Part shown: one piece after another, positions 2,786 through 8,879 of the stretch
Layout of the letters: the number at the start of each line of letters is the position of its first letter
How positions within the stretch are numbered: position 1 is the first letter of the stretch
Source of the DNA: a virus
Taxonomy: Duplodnaviria > Heunggongvirae > Uroviricota > Caudoviricetes
Reading direction: 5' to 3' (one strand)
Length of the DNA stretch: 9,005 bases
IMG/VR virus record: IMGVR_UViG_3300000301_000068
Made by a program: the position numbers and the translations under genes
The notes under the pieces: generated by a model
The model's database searches: none
Seen by the model: the letters and a program-made list of their open reading frames with translations, nothing else
What the model was told of the DNA's origin: nothing

Positions 2786-3498
2786 TCACAGGCCGATATT
2801 GCGGCGGTGTTGCTCCAGCCGGTCGACGCCATTCACCTTCTCAATCATGTTAATGGTGTCGATTTCGACCAGTTCCTTACCGTCCATCGTCAGCCGGAAA
2901 TAGGTGCAGACCACGGAGATTTTCGACTCGGTGTCTTCTCCCTGTTTACCCTCGCCGGTGTCGATTTCTTTCTGACGGCCACGCATGACCACTTCGACGG
3001 CCACCGTTTCGCCGGTATCGTCACGCTGGTAAGAGCCTGCAAAACGAATCGGCACGGCATCCACACCGGTTGCGGCGTAAAGTTCCCAGATAACCGAATC
3101 CGGGAAGCCCCCGAGCNNNNNNNNNNATCTTCTCCCTGTTTCCCCTCGCCGGTGTCGATTTCTTTCTGACGTCCACGCATGACCACCTCGACGGCCACCG
3201 TTTCGCCGGTATCGTCACGCTGGTAAGAACCAGCAAAACGAATCGGCACGGCATCCACACCGGTTGCGGCGTAAAGCTCCCAGATAACCGAATCCGGGAA
3301 GCCCCCGAGCGACCACTCCATTGACAGCGCATCGTCATCAAGGCCGAGGTCTACCGGTGCGCTGCCGTTCATCCCCGCACCGCGATAATTTTCGAGCTTA
3401 CGGGTCAGTTTTGGCAGCGTGACGGACGTTGCAACGCCCTGATAGCTGTAGCCGTTCAGAAAGACATTCATGTATTTGAGTTTGCGCGGCATTGCCAT
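2786..3498 (-). CDS. FII: Tail tube protein (P2 gpFII-like); frame broken in this assembly by a 183-bp duplicated overlap and 10-N gap
   Basis: ATG at 3498-3496 with GGAG 8 nt upstream (MAMPRKLKYMNVFLNGYSYQGVATSVTLPKLTRKLENYRGAGMNGSAPVDLGLDDDALSMEWSLGGFPDSVIWELYAATGVDAVPIRFAGSYQRDDTGETVAVEVVMRGRQKEIDTGEGKQGED...). The C-terminal part ...TESKISVVCTYFRLTMDGKELVEIDTINMIEKVNGVDRLEQHRRNIGL ends at 2786. Removing 2934-3127 restores a single 172-codon ORF, the expected size for a P2-type tube protein. Confidence 0.8.
2934..3310. repeat. Uncollapsed overlap: 2934-3116 and 3128-3310 are about 97% identical (6 differences) across a 10-N gap (3117-3126)
   Basis: Direct comparison of the two 183-nt copies. 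All six differences are third-codon-position synonymous changes in the FII frame (ggt/ggg, ggc/gga, gaa/gag, gca/gct, ggc/ggt, gaa/gag). Both copies encode the identical peptide DAVPIRFAGSYQRDDTGETVAVEVVMRGRQKEIDTGEGKQGED. Confidence 0.75.
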
Positions 3499-3510: not shown

Positions 3511-4849
3511 TTAATTGCTGTTAACCGAGGTGACCAGATTTGCCAGGTATTTATCGGTAATACGCTGGCGCAGGGTCAGGTTTTCGAGAGGAGGCACCGG
3601 GGTATAGTCGTAGTCGATATACAGTTTTCCGGCCTTGAGGGTTTCCGCATCGTTGGATTCTTCGCTGAACCAGCAGGTCGCATCCACGATATAGCCGTTT
3701 GTTTTCAGCTCTCGGAATTTGGCATTGATGCCGTCAACGATGTCGCGAATCAGCGTTGCGGTGATGGGCTTGTCCACCGCCCACATGTGCGCCTCAGCCA
3801 TCGTGTCGGCCAGCACCTGCGCGGTGCGGGTGTAGTTTTCAAAGAGGAACAGCGGGTCATCAGAGCAGGTACGGTTACCCCAGAAGCGGAAACCGTCGCG
3901 GCGAATCAGCGTAGTGACGCCTGACTCGTTAAGCAGGTCAGCATCGGTGCCGGACTCCTGCAAATCCCAGAATACGGACGCGCTGATGCCGGTAACACCG
4001 TTCACCCCGACGTTGGACAGCGTTTTATGCCAGCCCTGCTCCTGGTCGATTTTAGCACGCAGCCCCAGCGCACGGGCGGTGGCATACGCGGTGGCGGTGG
4101 TACTGGTGACCGTATCCCATGCGAGGAAATCCGGCCAGATGACCATCAGCTCACGCTGGCTGAAATTCTGGCGGTAGGCTTTCACCTCGGAAATAGTTTT
4201 ACAGCCCCATGCGCTGATATACCCGAAAGCGCGCAGCTTCTGACAGACTGATGCCAGTGCAACAGCCACCTCTTTGGTATCCAGCCCCGGCACACCAAGA
4301 ATACGCGGTTTAACANNNNNNNNNNNNNNNNNNNNNNNNNNNNNNNNNNNNNNNNNNNNNNNNNNNNNNNNNNNNNNNNNNNNNNNNNNNNNNNNNNNNN
4401 NNNNNNNNNNNNNNNNNNNNNNNNNNNNNNNNNNNNNNNNNNNNGGTGGTTCCGATGATATTGGAAACAGTCTGCGCGAGTTTCGTTTCCTCGTCGTCGC
4501 CGGTGCCGTCTTCCACGCGCACAACAACGGTGACCGGTTTTGACTGGTCGGCGATGGCCTGCAGCGACGCCGCCAGCGTGCCTTTTTTACCGGCCTTTGC
4601 AATTGCGCTCTGCACATTNNNNNNNNNNNNNNNNNNNNNNNNNNNNNNNNNNNNNNNNNNNNNNNNNNNNNNNNNNNNNNNNNNNNNNNNNNNNNNNNNN
4701 NNNNNNNNNNNNNNNNNNNNNNNNNNNNNNNNNNNNNNNNNNNNNNNNNNNNNNNNNNNNNNNCCGACAATGGCGGTGGATACGGTGGAAATGACGCGGG
4801 TGCCGTCGTTAATCTCCAGCACCTGCACGCCATGATGATAGTCGCTCAT
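3511..4849 (-). CDS. FI: Contractile tail sheath protein (P2 gpFI-like); interrupted by N-runs 4316-4444 and 4619-4763
   Basis: ATG at 4849-4847 with GGAG 9 nt upstream. N-terminus [28 protein letters not shown], middle segment [58 protein letters not shown], and long C-terminal part [37 protein letters not shown]...[25 protein letters not shown] ending at TAA 3513-3511. The frame changes across the 4316-4444 N-run, which is why the track splits it into two ORFs. Confidence 0.85.
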
Positions 4850-4854
4850 CCGTT

Positions 4855-4945
4855 TAACTCCGTGGTTAATGGGTGAGTGGTATTTTCAGTTGTGCCGGAG
4901 ATGTCAGGCTATTTGTCCCGGTTGGCTAATCGACAGCACAACCAC
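4855..4945 (-). promoter_or_regulatory. Putative late promoter region for the FI-FII-E-T operon (P2 PF-like position)
   Basis: Positional inference only: about 90 nt between the intrinsic terminator and the FI RBS. It contains a -10-like tgaaaat about 35 nt upstream of the ATG and a TGT...ACA partial dyad (TGT-N16-ACA) further upstream. The exact Ogr-box consensus I recall (TGT-N12-ACA) is not present. Confidence 0.3.
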
Positions 4946-4949
4946 CGGT

Positions 4950-4976
4950 AAAGAAAAGGCGGGCAATCAGCCCGCC
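4950..4976 (-). terminator. Rho-independent terminator ending the tail-fibre operon downstream of G
   Basis: Minus strand reads GGCGGGC-tgatt-GCCCGCC followed by TTTTCTTT, starting 5 nt after the G stop codon. Confidence 0.65.
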
Positions 4977-4981
4977 TGTGT

Positions 4982-5560
4982 TTATTGCGGTAGTTCCGGC
5001 CATTCAATATCCGGGGCATTTTCCGGCTGAACGCGATTCAGTAGCACACGGTATTTTTTCCAGTGTGTCAGGCTTAACTTTTCTTCCTCGGTAGCCATAT
5101 CTAAATCGACAGCATCCTGCAGAGTGGCAATAATTTCACCTGCATATGCAATCTGCTCTTTCTTCTGAGACTCCGCCGCTCTGACAAGCGCATCACGTTC
5201 TGCATTCTCATCATTCACCCACGCATTTCCGTCCCATTTCTGATAATCCCCCTCCGGGGAAATAGCTGTCACGTCTGGAGGTAATACGCCAAGTTCAGAA
5301 ATATAAATGGCTGCTCCTGTTTTCGTTTCGTAGACGGTCTTTCCGCGATGGTCTTCCATCAGTTCCCATTTCATTTCATCTGCATTGAAAACGGCTGCAT
5401 AACCAGCAGGAATATCAGGTGGTGCAATATCTGTACTGTTTGCAGGCAGGCCAGTATACGGCGGAATATATGCATCACTTTCGCCAATAAACTCATTGGT
5501 TCCATTAAGTAAATTGAAAACGCGGATAGTTTGTGCTTCTGCACTCATTCTGAAAGCCAT
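4982..5560 (-). CDS. G: Tail fibre assembly protein (chaperone); lambda Tfa-like N-terminal half in the P2 gpG position
   Basis: 192-aa [57 protein letters not shown]...[38 protein letters not shown]. The C-terminal [11 protein letters not shown]...EWPE motif is characteristic of the Tfa family. Its ATG overlaps the H stop (TAATG). Confidence 0.8.
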
Positions 5561-8235
5561 TATGCAAGCCTCACAATATAGTTAAATGCGATGTTTTTGA
5601 CGGTGTTTTCGGTATTACCCGTAGCATTTACCGTGATGGTGTGCCCGTGCGCACCTAATGCTACAGTGTGTGCATGGGCACCAATACCTACAGTGTGGTT
5701 ATGCTGACCAATATCCACCGTATGGGCGTGCGCTCCGGCTGTGCTGGACACCTGATTGTTTCCTGAAGCCTGTACACGCTGTTTTCCACCGACAGAGTCG
5801 CCGCCATAAACACCACCGACAGTGTGCGTATGATTGCCCGTATTGTTCGTTGATTTTGTGCCATGGTTAAACGTACTGACTGTCTTCGTGCCGTAATCAA
5901 ATGAACTGGTCGTTTTCGTCCCTAAATCCGTATTTGACGCACTGGCGCTGTGAGTATGCGATTTAATCCCGTCCTGTTCCTGTGACAATACAGCACGTCC
6001 ACTGGCGGGNNNNNNNNNNNNNNNNNNNNNNNNNNNNNNNNNNNNNNNNNNNNNNNNNNNNNNNNNNNNNNNNNNNNNNNNNNNNNNNNNNNNNCCCTTG
6101 ATTGTCCAGCCGCGCATATCTGGAATAACACCAGAAGGATAGGCAATAGCCAGTTTAGGATATGCTGCCTTATCAAACGTCTGCCCCTGCATAATTGCAT
6201 AGCCTGCAGGTGGTGTATCTGATGGCCACGGCAGCGGAACACCTGGCGGAAACGCTTCAATATTTGCCGAGCCGTCAAATTTTACGCCGTTAATTGTCCT
6301 TGCCGTTTTCAGCTTTGTTGCTGTAGCCGCATTGCCGGACAGTTCACCAGAAAGGCCTGCACTGAATGTCTGTTTTGCCTCCCATGTCTGGGCTTCGTCG
6401 ATAATTGGTAGCCGACGAATATTGAAGCTACGCTCCCCAGGATTGCCATATAAGCGGACTGTAAAAAAACGATAGTTGGTTTTGTTTGAAGTGCTGCGCC
6501 ATACCTGCATTGAACGGGCGACACCTCCGCCTTCACTGGGGCCAACAGTGATATTTATCAGGTTAGTATCAATGACGCCCCATTCCATCCCATCGGGAAT
6601 ATTGGTCATATCTGAAAGCCTGACAGTTATCATGCTGCCCGGTATAAAGTCGTAGGTCTGCCAGTCCAGATTGGATAACCTGTCGGTAACACCGCCGACA
6701 CCTAATTTAGTGAGTAATGATTTTGAGTTGTATACTTCCGCCCATTCCCCCCAGTCAGTTTCACCGCTGGCGCGGGTTCGCTGAAATGTCCGGTTTTTAT
6801 AGGCATCCGTTGCTGAAACAGTCGTATATGTCTGGATATACGATTCAATATCGCAACGTTTTTTCACCTCGACTACCGAGCCAACAGCAAGATCTTTGTC
6901 GGTAAGTGGTGCATTTGTGGCCTGTTTCGTGACGCTATAAATACCAGGCTTTAAAAGGTCATCAAGATCCCCTGAATAAGTCCATCCCGTGGACTGATAC
7001 CCAACAGCAATCCAGTCCTCCCATTGTGGATTTTCTGCATCCCATGAGGCAGTCAGTCCGCGAATGTACATAGTCCCACTACGGGTGGTGTAACGTTGCA
7101 TCTTCCCATACAGACCGCCTTCAAAGACTTCCAGAATACCCTGCCCAAAACTCCCTTCCTCCGGGAAATGACGGTCAAATGAGGCTATTGATGTACTGCT
7201 ATTGCGCCATATTCCCAGGTGTTCCGCACCACCTAAAGAATTCAGGTCAATTGACGTGCTTAATGGGCGAGTCCCGCTTGTAATAACTCTCCATGCACTC
7301 CATACAGGACTGACAGGGTTCCATTCTGCATCAAGCATCCGAATGTAAATATTACCGGTTCGGGTGGTGTAGCGTTGTGTGCAGTGAAAGCGACCAGCAT
7401 TGAATACTTCCAGAACCCCATTGCCTTTATCTTCAGGGTAACCAGACTCTGGTTTTGCAGTGGATTGTGACGGACATGACCACGTTCCAAGATATTTTTC
7501 TTCTGGGCCATAGGAGTCAAGATTGTCAGTGGTTGGAATCATTCCATTGTGTTTCATAAACGTCAGGCTGGTAACGCCAATATTGTCCAGAAAAGCGCCC
7601 TTATCTGGAATATCGCCACCATTCTGGTCTTTCTGCAGACGTTTCTCAGCATTGTCATAGGCTGCTTTTACTGCCTTTGGCGTTGCCGCCAGCTTTTCAC
7701 TGGTGCTGTTTGTTGCACTGCTTAACTGAGTAAAACCTTTTTCTGTCAGCGTGGCGTCAGGATGGCGGCGGGACTGCTCATGCTCTGCGATTTTGTCATC
7801 GACGTAATCCTGCGTCGCCATCACTGTGCTGGCATCAATACTCAGCTCAACGGACGCCACATTGCTGAGAATAATAACCATGCGGCAGGTCTGCGCACGT
7901 CCGGAGCCTTCAGCCAGTTCTGGCTTATAGCTTTCTGCCATGTTGGATACCGCAATCAGTGTTCCGGCATCGTCATACAGACCAAGCTCACGCATCCAGA
8001 AGCCGCCCACTTCTGGCGGAACAACCAGTTCAGCCACGATATAGTTTTTATTCTTGTTATCCACGCTGACTTTATTCAGGGCGTGACGCCAGACCTCATG
8101 CACCAGTTTCGTCTGACCAGCATCCGGCACCGGCAATTTGCCATTACCGTCACCCACGGCCATTGCAGACAGAGTTACTTTTTTCCCGCCGGGGACAGTG
8201 GCGGCTGCCAGCTTCGCGGCTCCGGCAGTAGTGAT
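5560..8235 (-). CDS. H: Tail fibre protein (P2 gpH-like N-terminus, divergent distal receptor-binding region); 5' end hidden in N-run 8237-8402, internal N-run 6010-6094
   Basis: My translation upstream of the track ORF start gives [56 protein letters not shown]..., matching the conserved gpH N-terminus as I recall it, so the true start lies in the N-run. The ORF stays open to TAA 5562-5560 and ends ...[11 protein letters not shown]. It contains the PDMRG collar-like motif, an internal tandem domain repeat and a His-rich HxH C-terminal region. Confidence 0.85.
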
Positions 8236-8402
8236 ANNNNNNNNNNNNNNNNNNNNNNNNNNNNNNNNNNNNNNNNNNNNNNNNNNNNNNNNNNNNNNNN
8301 NNNNNNNNNNNNNNNNNNNNNNNNNNNNNNNNNNNNNNNNNNNNNNNNNNNNNNNNNNNNNNNNNNNNNNNNNNNNNNNNNNNNNNNNNNNNNNNNNNNN
8401 NN

Positions 8403-8879
8403 CAGATAGCCGGGAATGTCCTGGATAATGTTCAGACCGATAAGGTGGCGACTTGCGGGTTTGGCATCGGCAATCAGCCGTTCCATTTCCAGATACATCT
8501 CCTCCGTGATGCCGCTTTCCAGCACACCGATATCAAGGCGAAAGGTTCCGGGCGGGTCGTTTGTCTCCCACCATTCCTTTACGTTAATGAGATAGCCGAG
8601 CGGCTCCACCACACGCCGGATTGCGCCTATAGTGCCTTTATGACAGTGGATGAAATAGGCATCACGGATAACGGCGCGTTTTGTCGCTTCCGGCCACTTT
8701 TCATCCCAGCGGTCAACCGAAAATGACCACGCCAGCCACGGCAGCAGATTTGCCGGACAGGTGTCCGGGTTCCACAGCTCACGAATACTGACCGGCGTTT
8801 TTTCAATTTCCGCACAGGCTTTTGCGGCAGCGACTTCAAGCGGTGATGAGCCGGTCGGCAGCAGTCGCGAATCATTCAT
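8403..8879 (-). CDS. I: Baseplate assembly / tail protein I (P2 gpI-like); 3' end hidden in N-run 8237-8402
   Basis: ATG at 8879-8877 with GGAGG 7 nt upstream. MNDSRLLPTGSSPLEVAAAKACAEIEKTPVSIRELWNPDTCPANLLPWLAWSFSVDRWDEKWPEATKRAVIRDAYFIHCHKGTIGAIRRVVEPLGYLINVKEWWETNDPPGTFRLDIGVLESGITEEMYLEMERLIADAKPASRHLIGLNIIQDIPGYL is the visible 159 aa. It sits immediately upstream of H as in P2. The track's continuation through the N-run is not reliable. Confidence 0.8.

Follow-up and report, generated by a model that had tools for sequence, protein, structure and literature searches.

The window (here, the whole stretch of 9005 nt that was analysed, IMG/VR record IMGVR_UViG_3300000301_000068) covers tail genes only, arranged in the order I-H-G-FI-FII-E-T, which is also the order in phages P2, L-413C and P24A7b. 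Here we focus on H and G, which very likely encode the tail fibre and its assembly chaperone in a P2-like (Peduovirus) E. coli prophage, H being a serial mosaic of three modules. H occupies the position of the P2 gpH family: it sits in the V-W-J-I-H-G late operon, with FI, FII, E and T following. The flanking genes (I/J, and FI through T) share 94–100% nucleotide identity with P2-like genes, and their order is that of P2, L-413C, P24A7b and E. coli prophages. The features of the H/G region are as follows (coordinates are those of the window).

4957–4977, minus strand: terminator-like hairpin with a T run behind it, immediately past the G stop codon (terminator scan)
4982–5560, minus strand: gene G, lambda Tfa-type tail-fibre assembly chaperone (PF02413, E = 3.3e-40)
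5560–8236, minus strand: tail-fibre gene H, visible part (ORF map; Pfam PF12571, PF03406 and PF07484)
5563–6300, minus strand: H module 3, lambda Stf/T4 gp37-type receptor-binding tip with collar, needle and distal head (Pfam and PDB matches)
5611–5910, minus strand: hypervariable patch of the tip, i.e. the head between the second and third HxH motifs and the adjoining needle strands (sliding identity, protein alignment)
6010–6094: N run inside H, standing for 4 real bases (codons ...G-K...) and not for 85 nt
6301–6309, minus strand: shaft/tip crossover, in the codons of a conserved linker motif (informative sites)
6310–7638, minus strand: H module 2, L-413C-type shaft of ∼440 residues (alignment to L-413C H)
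7552–7595, minus strand: N-terminus/shaft crossover zone of 44 nt (four-way DNA alignment)
7639–8236, minus strand: H module 1, P2 gpH-type N-terminal baseplate-attachment domain with the Phage_fiber_2 motif (Pfam, BLASTP)

The coordinates of H and G, their strand and the C-terminal ending of H had been given in an original prediction made from the sequence alone, and are confirmed by the ORF map and by alignment. H ends with a stop codon at 5562–5560, which the start of G overlaps by 1 nt (TAATG). At the other end, alignment to the H genes of P24A7b, L-413C and P2 places the start codon and the first eight codons under an N run (8237–8402), and the full-length protein has ∼872 residues. The ATG at 8163, the choice of the ORF finder, was rejected as the start of H: it encodes an internal methionine, the true start being masked by the same N run. 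As for the N run within H (6010–6094), P24A7b, STYP1 and lambda all read GWTIKGKPASG at this site, and an E. coli draft contig from NCBI (AAWXDL010000064.1) is 100% identical on either side of the run with 4 nt in between; an apparent 27-residue insertion was therefore rejected. No NCBIfam family is assigned to H or G.

The visible first 199 codons of H (8235–7639) correspond to residues 9–207 of the full protein. This module is assigned to PF12571 (E = 3.5e-53, profile positions 9–150) and PF03406 (E = 2.7e-21), and shares 83% amino acid identity with residues 23–207 of canonical P2 H, so that the P2-type start of about 220 codons that had been predicted holds, with its boundary (at about 7600) off by only ∼40 nt. 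Beyond residue 207, BLASTP gave no match between H and P2 H, and the P2-type distal part (homologous to P2 H residues 208–669, ending in QKYINGTWYNVAQV) is absent from H of the window. Lambda orf-401, the N-terminal attachment part of Stf, matches H only in the Phage_fiber_2 motif (40 residues, 65% identity). The protein had been predicted to have two parts, a P2 N-terminus and a lambda-like remainder; both ends are as described, but the ∼440 residues between them form an L-413C-type shaft without similarity to lambda.

This shaft, with about 95% amino acid and 95.7% nucleotide identity to L-413C H, is the counterpart of L-413C gpH residues 208 to ∼650. It is built of four units of roughly 90–110 residues and holds 279-nt direct repeats: units 1 and 2 form an evident tandem duplication (z = 27), and units 3 and 4 align weakly (z = 3.9). 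These scores come from Smith–Waterman alignments against shuffled sequences; BLASTP self-comparison had printed no repeats. There are 1893 homologues of the shaft at E ≤ 1e-5, many of them labelled 'pyocin knob domain-containing' by NCBI. Among the proteins compared, the distal fibre subunit of the T-even-like phage JK23 shares 50% amino acid identity with the shaft; the alternative shaft found in P2SIDE7 and M15 is 57–75% identical at the nucleotide level. An AlphaFold2 monomer model of the shaft is of low confidence (mean pLDDT 65.8), and the Foldseek matches of this model, to phage receptor-binding proteins and to an R-type pyocin fibre (6CL5, E = 1.2e-4), have TM-scores of only 0.19–0.29.

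The tip matches the tip structure of T4 gp37 (PDB 2XGF, E = 8.7e-64, in two stretches), contains a Collar domain (PF07484, E = 7.4e-10) and shares 54% amino acid identity with lambda orf-314. The tip has six HxH motifs, the same number as in P24A7b and STYP1, compared with eight in lambda and none in P2 or L-413C. The conserved 17-residue C-terminal end is the same as in T4 and lambda. A collar stretch of 230 nt (6324–6095) has a close counterpart (95.7% identity) in the stf of a lambdoid prophage with the gene order J-lom-stf-tfa, but beyond these 230 nt the tip and tfa of that prophage are only 72–84% identical to those of the window. The head region is short and divergent from T4 and lambda alike. 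In the hypervariable patch (5910–5611) nucleotide identity with P24A7b is 52–83%, compared with 93–100% on either side, whereas E. coli M15 and FDAARGOS_1337 are 93–100% identical to the window in the patch.

G shares 64% amino acid identity with lambda Tfa over its whole length and 78% in residues 1–60; the lambda Tfa-like N-terminus that had been predicted is thus present, and the likeness extends over the whole of G. Identity with P2 gpG is 27% overall, 5% in residues 1–60 and 44% in residues 121–192. G also matches the phrog_105 family ('tail fiber assembly', E = 4.4e-90) and, in its C-terminal two-thirds only, the Tfa of Mu (5YVQ_B); a protein identical to G has precomputed matches to Caudo_TAP_N and Caudo_TAP. 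In Tfa proteins it is the variable N-terminal domain that binds the fibre, and trimerisation is a function of the conserved C-terminal domain (PMC9608196). Tip and G are linked: each of the five gp37-type tips examined (those of the window, P24A7b, STYP1, lambda and the ATCC 25922 prophage) is accompanied by a G or tfa gene matching G of the window, M15 and FDAARGOS_1337 likewise carry a matching G, and three P2-type tips carry a P2-type G.

Both joins within H can be placed closely. In the zone between N-terminus and shaft (7595–7552) all three lineages are identical, and the zone joins a stretch of P2SIDE7/P24A7b type (7675–7596) to the L-413C-type shaft: identity with L-413C is 81–84% at 7710–7561 and 100% afterwards, whereas identity with P2SIDE7 is 96–97% and then 59%. 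At the join between shaft and tip, all 25 decisive informative sites in 6368–6309 agree with L-413C H, and all 30 in 6301–6234 agree with the lambdoid Stf gene of E. coli ATCC 25922 (two more informative sites, 6325 and 6304, match neither). This shaft/tip junction is shared by 28 out of 5426 complete E. coli genomes. The H/G junction is identical to the lambda stf/tfa junction at 30 of 31 bases, including the same 1-nt overlap, and P2's own H/G junction is unrelated to it. Similarity to the P2 backbone restarts at 4978, 3 nt past the G stop codon (canonical P2 matches 4978–4764 at 95.8%). For tip and G taken together, the nucleotide identities are 98.9% with E. coli M15 (which has another shaft), 87.7% with P24A7b, 84% with STYP1 and 73% with lambda. 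The prophage of E. coli FDAARGOS_1337 matches end to end (98.0% in H and 96.3% in G), and the draft contig mentioned above is continuous and 100% identical from 8019 to 4445 (shaft, tip, G and the start of FI).

These modules, which occur in different phage families, were very likely joined by homologous recombination in short motifs that are common to many fibre genes. One join used the ATPKAVK/Phage_fiber_2 motif and the stretch following it (7595–7552) and the other the linker (6309–6301), and tip and G moved jointly, as a block of ∼1.25 kb whose right edge lies 3 nt past the end of G. In the assembled particle, the P2-family N-terminal domain would plug a trimeric fibre into the baseplate, and the shaft would be a series of repeated beta-rich domains of the L-413C type. 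The six HxH motifs are predicted to coordinate metal ions, through their histidines, along a trimeric needle, with the distal head contacting the host receptor. The variable N-terminal domain of the Tfa-type G would be matched to the tip that G must fold, and only the conserved C-terminal part, expected to trimerise, resembles P2 gpG. It is from homologues that trimerisation, metal binding and chaperone action are expected here.

It could be argued that the mosaic is an assembly artefact, in which the shaft and the tip with G, coming from different prophages, were misjoined across the gap at 6010–6094. The assembly is indeed fragmented: seven long N runs overstate the sequence that they replace by 70–82 nt each, and two 10-N gaps have duplicated sequence on their flanks; moreover, many Stf-like genes share the conserved collar stretch in which the gap in H lies, and E. 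coli genomes commonly have two or more such genes. But both module junctions are inside one unbroken stretch (8236–6095), identity with M15 has already reached 95–100% before the gap, the draft contig crosses the gap with 100% identity, and the complete FDAARGOS_1337 genome and phage P24A7b share the order of modules. We consider an artefact extremely improbable, and a scaffolding chimera is refuted by the continuous identical contig. Vertical inheritance alone is not quite as improbable but still very unlikely: H and G would be the native fibre and chaperone of a P24A7b-type sublineage of P2-like phages, their mosaic look being ancient or convergent, with no lambdoid exchange that is relevant on recent timescales. 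In its favour, end-to-end matches to H and G exist in P24A7b, the FDAARGOS_1337 prophage and the draft contig, and a step in GC content is common to all P2-like H/G pairs, P2 included. The nearest relative, however, shifts by segment: P24A7b is at 98–100%, drops in the hypervariable patch and is again at 93–100%, and M15 rises from 56–70% in the shaft to 95–100% in tip and G. The informative sites split sharply at the shaft/tip crossover, and the 230-nt collar stretch closely resembles a lambdoid stf, with no lambdoid similarity in the backbone. The original prediction had counted a match of H and G to a single P2-family pair as evidence against a mosaic; the three end-to-end matches just named are of this kind, but they do not refute mosaicism, and they show the mosaic to be an allele that is established and in circulation, not one new in the window. 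Since P24A7b and other prophages have the same arrangement, the main joins did not arise recently in this genome. Programmed switching of host range, by an invertible segment of the Gin/Cin type or by a diversity-generating retroelement instead of recombination between phages, has a negligible probability. In the fibre loci of Mu and P1, invertible segments carry alternative tips and Tfa genes, and the fibres of both phages share the Phage_fiber_2 region with H of the window (5YVQ, 8JU3). However, 4764–8236 contains no inverted repeats of at least 18 nt, there is no second tip/Tfa pair and no invertase (G and FI are only 132 nt apart), and the window has no reverse-transcriptase ORF.

Base composition has to be weighed as well, because low GC content of the shaft and G might be taken to mark recently acquired DNA of a lower-GC donor and to be the main evidence of exchange. 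We recomputed it without Ns (the raw table is distorted, as N runs depress GC): the N-terminus has a GC content of 53.6% and a GC3 of 0.55, the shaft 47.8% and 0.45, the tip 50.4% and 0.45, and G 45.9% and 0.38. Shaft, tip and G together have 48.0% GC, compared with 56.3% in the flanking tail genes (chi-square p = 7e-12), which is in line with a lower-GC donor. The original prediction had estimated about 55% against 40–45% and read the step as the signature of an exchanged cassette; the direction is right, but the contrast is 4–8 points and not 10–15, and the reading as a signature fails. GC falls likewise in canonical P2 (55.9% to 48.2% to 43.8%), and the step is also present in L-413C, STYP1 and P24A7b, and in milder form in lambda. 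Because canonical P2 has the same drop, the step is not diagnostic of the cassette in the window; being common to these phages, it has long characterised distal fibre and chaperone genes in general and lends the exchange no independent support. In addition, the lowest-GC part of H is the shaft and not the lambda-like tip. Uniform composition across H, which had been named as evidence against the prediction, is not found, but between the tip and the N-terminus the difference is not significant (p = 0.26). The lower-GC donor is therefore an unlikely explanation. It is homology, and not composition, that proves the exchange.

Lambda Stf and T4 gp37 bind OmpC (PMC12617516; PMC7291167), and P2 fibres bind LPS (PMC9594776). 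The receptor of the fibre in the window probably differs from the LPS-core receptor of P2. The precedents of lambda Stf and T4 gp37 make a porin, for example OmpC, a possibility, but the divergence of the head is too great for any particular receptor to be named. A lambda-like module gained by exchange, together with a likely change of receptor, had been predicted; the former is borne out by the matches to 2XGF, orf-314 and lambda Tfa, by the lambda-type H/G junction and by the clean crossover, and the latter is only probable. One could go further and imagine a device of dual specificity, in which the shaft repeats bind the LPS core and the gp37/Stf-type tip binds a porin, the linker being a plug-in site where co-resident P2-like and lambdoid E. 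coli prophages still swap tips; we regard this as unlikely. The evidence for continuing exchange of tips is limited to one 230-nt stretch (∼96%) and to the segment-wise shifts of the nearest relative.

The pattern is real but ordinary, and it is biologically nothing new, the exact allele being already in public databases; descriptions of P2 fibre genes being transferred horizontally go back to 1992 (PMC9594776). The window is a cleanly mapped natural case of the rebuilding of a P2-type fibre, and its practical value is modest: the base-level crossovers at 7595–7552 and 6309–6301 and the tip–chaperone block of ∼1.25 kb could help in designing P2 particles or tailocins with new targets. It also carries a caution, that a generic drop in GC along H and G, seen in P2 too, is no sign of a foreign cassette.

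Among known systems, the closest is Peduovirus P24A7b (NC_049390), whose gp21 and gp22 have the same three-module H, the same lambda-type G and the same operon position (92% amino acid identity in H and 96% in G; 98.2% nucleotide identity from the N-terminus to the collar). It differs in the ∼300-nt distal patch of the tip, so that the receptor-contacting head is probably different, and in having three small ORFs between G and FI, where the window has none. Yersinia phage L-413C (NC_004745), whose gpH has been described as a receptor-binding protein and as a hybrid of four regions (PMC7460101), matches in the N-terminal domain and the entire shaft (95% amino acid identity over residues 9–675), apart from a short patch at 7710–7561. 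The likeness stops at 6309: L-413C has a P2-type tip ending in ...QKYINGTWYNVAQV, without HxH motifs, and a P2-type G.

Lambda Stf (orf-314) with Tfa, and the T4 gp37 tip, share with the window the collar–needle–head organisation, the HxH motifs and the C-terminal end; in lambda the downstream tfa also starts with a 1-nt overlap at a near-identical junction. The differences from lambda are the moderate identities of tip (54%) and Tfa (64%), the much shorter head of the window with six instead of eight HxH motifs, and the attachment: the fibre of the window is mounted on a myovirus baseplate through the P2 gpH domain, while lambda uses the N-terminal part of Stf. T4 uses gp38/gp57A and not Tfa (PMC9608196). 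Canonical P2 (NC_001895) resembles the window in the N-terminal 207 residues of H (83%), the operon context, the C-terminal third of G (44%) and the GC step, but no similarity can be detected past residue 207 of H, nor in the N-terminal domain of G; in P2, H and G are separated by a 3-nt spacer, and a 2.4-kb fun(Z) region follows G. Finally, in engineered chimeras the N-terminus of P2 gpH is kept for the baseplate and the C-terminal part of a T-even gp37 retargets the particle to OmpC (PMC9594776). Those are laboratory constructs with gp37 of phage S16, whereas the fibre of the window is natural and has an additional shaft and its own Tfa-type chaperone.

The tail-fibre gene H is built of three modules, resolved by BLASTP and multiple alignment with reference fibres. 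It lies among P2-like tail genes: all long ORFs of the window are on the minus strand (ORF map) in the P2 late order (partial I, H, G, FI sheath, FII tube, E and T tape measure), and the flanks share 94–100% nucleotide identity, with the same gene order, with P2-like phages and E. coli prophages. The features of the fibre region are:

8236–7639, minus strand, P2-type N-terminus of H
7638–6310, minus strand, L-413C-type shaft of H
6300–5563, minus strand, lambda Stf/T4 gp37-type tip of H
5560–4982, minus strand, G, assembly chaperone gene
4977–4957, terminator-like hairpin (terminator scan), at the point where P2 similarity returns

Visible residues 1–199 of H share 83% identity with canonical P2 gpH (BLASTP), which has no match to H past that residue by BLASTP or alignment. 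Pfam hits in H are PF12571 (the N-terminal tail-collar fibre domain of P2, E = 3.5e-53), a single Phage_fiber_2 repeat and, close to the C-terminus, PF07484 (Collar). Residues 200 to ~645 are 95% identical to gpH of Yersinia phage L-413C; neither P2 nor lambda has an equivalent of this part. The final ~230 residues share 54% identity with lambda orf-314 (the C-terminal part of the side tail fibre Stf) and 75% with STYP1, and are matched by Peduovirus phage P24A7b too. The original prediction, a P2-type N-terminus joined to a lambda-like remainder, was right about both ends of H (and about its C-terminal ending, as read from the ORF map), but overlooked the shaft.

The tip matches the receptor-binding tip of T4 gp37 in a solved-structure search (2XGF, E = 8.7e-64, collar and needle both covered). 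It has six HxH motifs, as do P24A7b and STYP1 (eight in lambda), and a motif count found none in the P2 or L-413C fibres; a 27-nt tandem DNA pair within 5639–5692 encodes two consecutive HxH needle units (HTVGIGAHA and HTVALGAHG). The shaft contains a tandem duplication of ~93 residues (z = 27 versus shuffles), marked in the DNA by direct repeats spaced 279 nt within 7061–7415. Its homologues, named 'pyocin knob domain-containing' by NCBI, are fused to several tip types (Collar, gp37_C and Gp34_trimer); its monomer model is of low confidence and aligns with phage receptor-binding proteins and the R1 pyocin fibre at TM-scores of ~0.2.

G carries a Caudo_TAP domain (Pfam, E = 3.3e-40). It was expected to have an N-terminus like that of Tfa, the lambda Stf assembly protein; this is confirmed by 78% identity in residues 1–60, and the likeness extends over the whole length (64%). 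Identity to P2 gpG is 5% in residues 1–60 and 44% in residues 121–192. Tfa proteins are modular: the N-terminal domain varies and attaches to the tip of the fibre, and trimerisation falls to a conserved helical domain at the C-terminus (PMC9608196). The identity profile of G fits this picture, which also accounts for the joint movement of tip and G.

The nearest relative switches from segment to segment along H and G (sliding identity profile, 75-nt windows, eight references). L-413C is 96–100% identical to 7711, 81–84% at 7710–7561 and 90–100% to 6290, with no match beyond; P24A7b and the FDAARGOS_1337 prophage are 92–100% identical along the whole profile, except P24A7b at 5910–5611 (52–83%); E. 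coli M15 has an alternative shaft (56–70%), yet is 95–100% identical from 6360 through G. The patch 7561–7710, which follows the Phage_fiber_2 motif directly, is a micro-mosaic within the N-terminus/shaft junction: here the window agrees at 96–100% with P24A7b, FDAARGOS_1337 and P2SIDE7, and a different version is carried by L-413C and M15 (81–84%).

There are 57 informative sites around the shaft/tip junction: all 25 decisive sites at 6368–6309 follow L-413C, all 30 at 6301–6234 follow the lambdoid prophage stf of E. coli ATCC 25922, and two (6325 and 6304) match neither. This clean split places the crossover at 6309–6301, inside the codons of a conserved linker at the shaft/tip border. The ATCC 25922 stf is flanked as in J-lom-stf-tfa, and over 6324–6095 it shares 95.7% identity with the window. 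Downstream of tfa in that prophage (L009, locus 6334–7407) are a small hypothetical ORF, an opposite-strand SAM-dependent methyltransferase and a truncated second tfa pseudogene, a region that may be left over from a previous replacement of tip and chaperone. A second crossover in H, from a P2SIDE7/P24A7b-type stretch to the L-413C-type shaft, falls at 7595–7552, a block of 44 nt whose sequence is identical across three lineages. The G start codon and the H stop codon share 1 nt, and the H/G junction (TGTGAGGCTTGCATAATGGCTTTCAGAATGA) is identical at 30 of 31 bases to the lambda stf/tfa junction, with the same TAATG overlap; the junction of P2 and L-413C is unrelated, with a 3-nt spacer. Canonical P2 similarity returns at 4978 (95.8%), 3 nt past the G stop codon, so that the shaft/tip crossover and this return delimit a tip-plus-chaperone block from ~6305 to 4981 (~1.25 kb of real sequence).

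The window contains nine runs of Ns, seven long and two of 10 Ns:

534–666, long N run
825–912, long N run
1047–1226, long N run
4316–4444, long N run
4619–4763, long N run
6010–6094, long N run
8237–8402, long N run
2213–2222, 10-N gap, start of gene T, 67 nt duplicated around it
3117–3126, 10-N gap, FII, 183 nt duplicated around it

All seven long runs exceed the homologous stretch of complete E. coli genomes by 70–82 nt. They are likewise overlong against an identical E. coli draft contig (85 Ns in place of 4 nt, 145 Ns in place of 67 nt), so their lengths and any reading frames crossing them are unreliable. The 10-N gaps look like unmerged overlapping contig ends, and add falsely duplicated ORF fragments to the ORF list. 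The overlong runs and duplicated gap flanks are what a scaffold assembled from short contigs would show, and an assembly chimera had to be weighed. It is excluded: both module junctions lie within one uninterrupted stretch (8236–6095), the draft contig (AAWXDL010000064.1 of GCA_015139165.1, 3673 nt) runs without a break at 100% identity from 8019 past G and into FI, and P24A7b and complete E. coli genomes have the same order. Among 5426 complete E. coli genomes, 28 have the same shaft/tip junction and 33 the same N-terminus/shaft junction, one side only of each junction is found in hundreds to thousands, and only 21 match at least 80% of the whole window. Tip and G alone are 99.4% identical in M15, there attached to another shaft.

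Several gene calls were rejected, as N runs make false ORF continuations. The 'I' ORF (8175–8879, minus strand) owes its full length to the run 8237–8402, under which gpI of relatives (176 aa) terminates. On the plus strand, a 215-aa ORF (7762–8409) lying opposite the 5' part of H reads through the same run, and the ATG listed as the H start, at 8163, encodes an internal methionine, relatives beginning 32 codons earlier, under that run. An apparent 27-residue insertion in H at 6010–6094 is not real, since the identical contig has 4 nt for these 85 Ns; H thus has ~872 residues.

N runs also distort the raw GC table, and GC was recomputed without Ns, with GC3 for the same four parts. GC is 53.6% in the P2-like N-terminus of H (8235–7639; GC3 0.55), 47.8% in the shaft (7638–6289; 0.45), 50.4% in the tip (6288–5563; 0.45) and 45.9% in G (0.38), and 55.6–56.5% in the flanking tail genes. 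The predicted drop exists (shaft, tip and G versus flanks, p = 7e-12), but is about half the size estimated, and for the tip, which is the truly lambda-like part, the difference from the H N-terminus is not significant (p = 0.26). Nor does the step mark this cassette: canonical P2 has it (55.9%, 48.2%, 43.8%), as do L-413C, STYP1 and P24A7b, and it is weaker in lambda (55.9% in J, 51.7% in the C-terminal part of stf, 48.9% in tfa). It is thus a generic trait of distal fibre and chaperone genes, and cannot separate the cassette from P2's own H and G.

By homology, H would form a trimeric fibre anchored to the baseplate by its N-terminal domain, its gp37/Stf-type tip would contact the host, and G would fold and trimerise that tip. 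The most variable tip patch (5910–5611) takes in the part that separates HxH motifs 2 and 3; from the 2XGF alignment and the domain boundaries of the T4 structure, we take it to be a candidate counterpart of the receptor-contacting head of T4 gp37. The receptor is quite likely to differ from that of P2, because the P2 tip is wholly absent from H. Lambda Stf and T4 gp37 bind OmpC (PMC12617516; PMC7291167), P2 fibres bind LPS (PMC9594776) and L-413C uses an LPS-core sugar (PMC7460101).

The spacing between G and FI is only 132 nt (4850–4981), and the variable cargo site there is empty. The site is also empty in M15 and STYP1; P2 has fun(Z) there, L-413C one unnamed ORF, P24A7b three small ORFs and FDAARGOS_1337 a 659-aa hypothetical protein. 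The shaft (6256–7638) shares 50% identity over 432 residues with the distal long-tail-fibre subunit (P0115) of the T-even-like Shigella phage JK23, in which the same type of linker as at the shaft/tip border precedes the homologous shaft, whereas in H it comes after.

The original prediction correctly recognised a known mosaicism, but missed the shaft, overstated the GC contrast and relied on a composition argument that does not tell this cassette from P2's own genes. Haggard-Ljungquist et al. (1992, as quoted in PMC9594776) dealt with horizontal exchange between P2 and unrelated phages in their fibre genes, such genes are known as hot spots of recombination (PMC8986868), and L-413C gpH has been characterised as a four-region hybrid (PMC7460101). 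The mosaic in the window is an instance of this known phenomenon, and its nearest annotated relative, P24A7b, shares both the three-module H and the lambda-type G.
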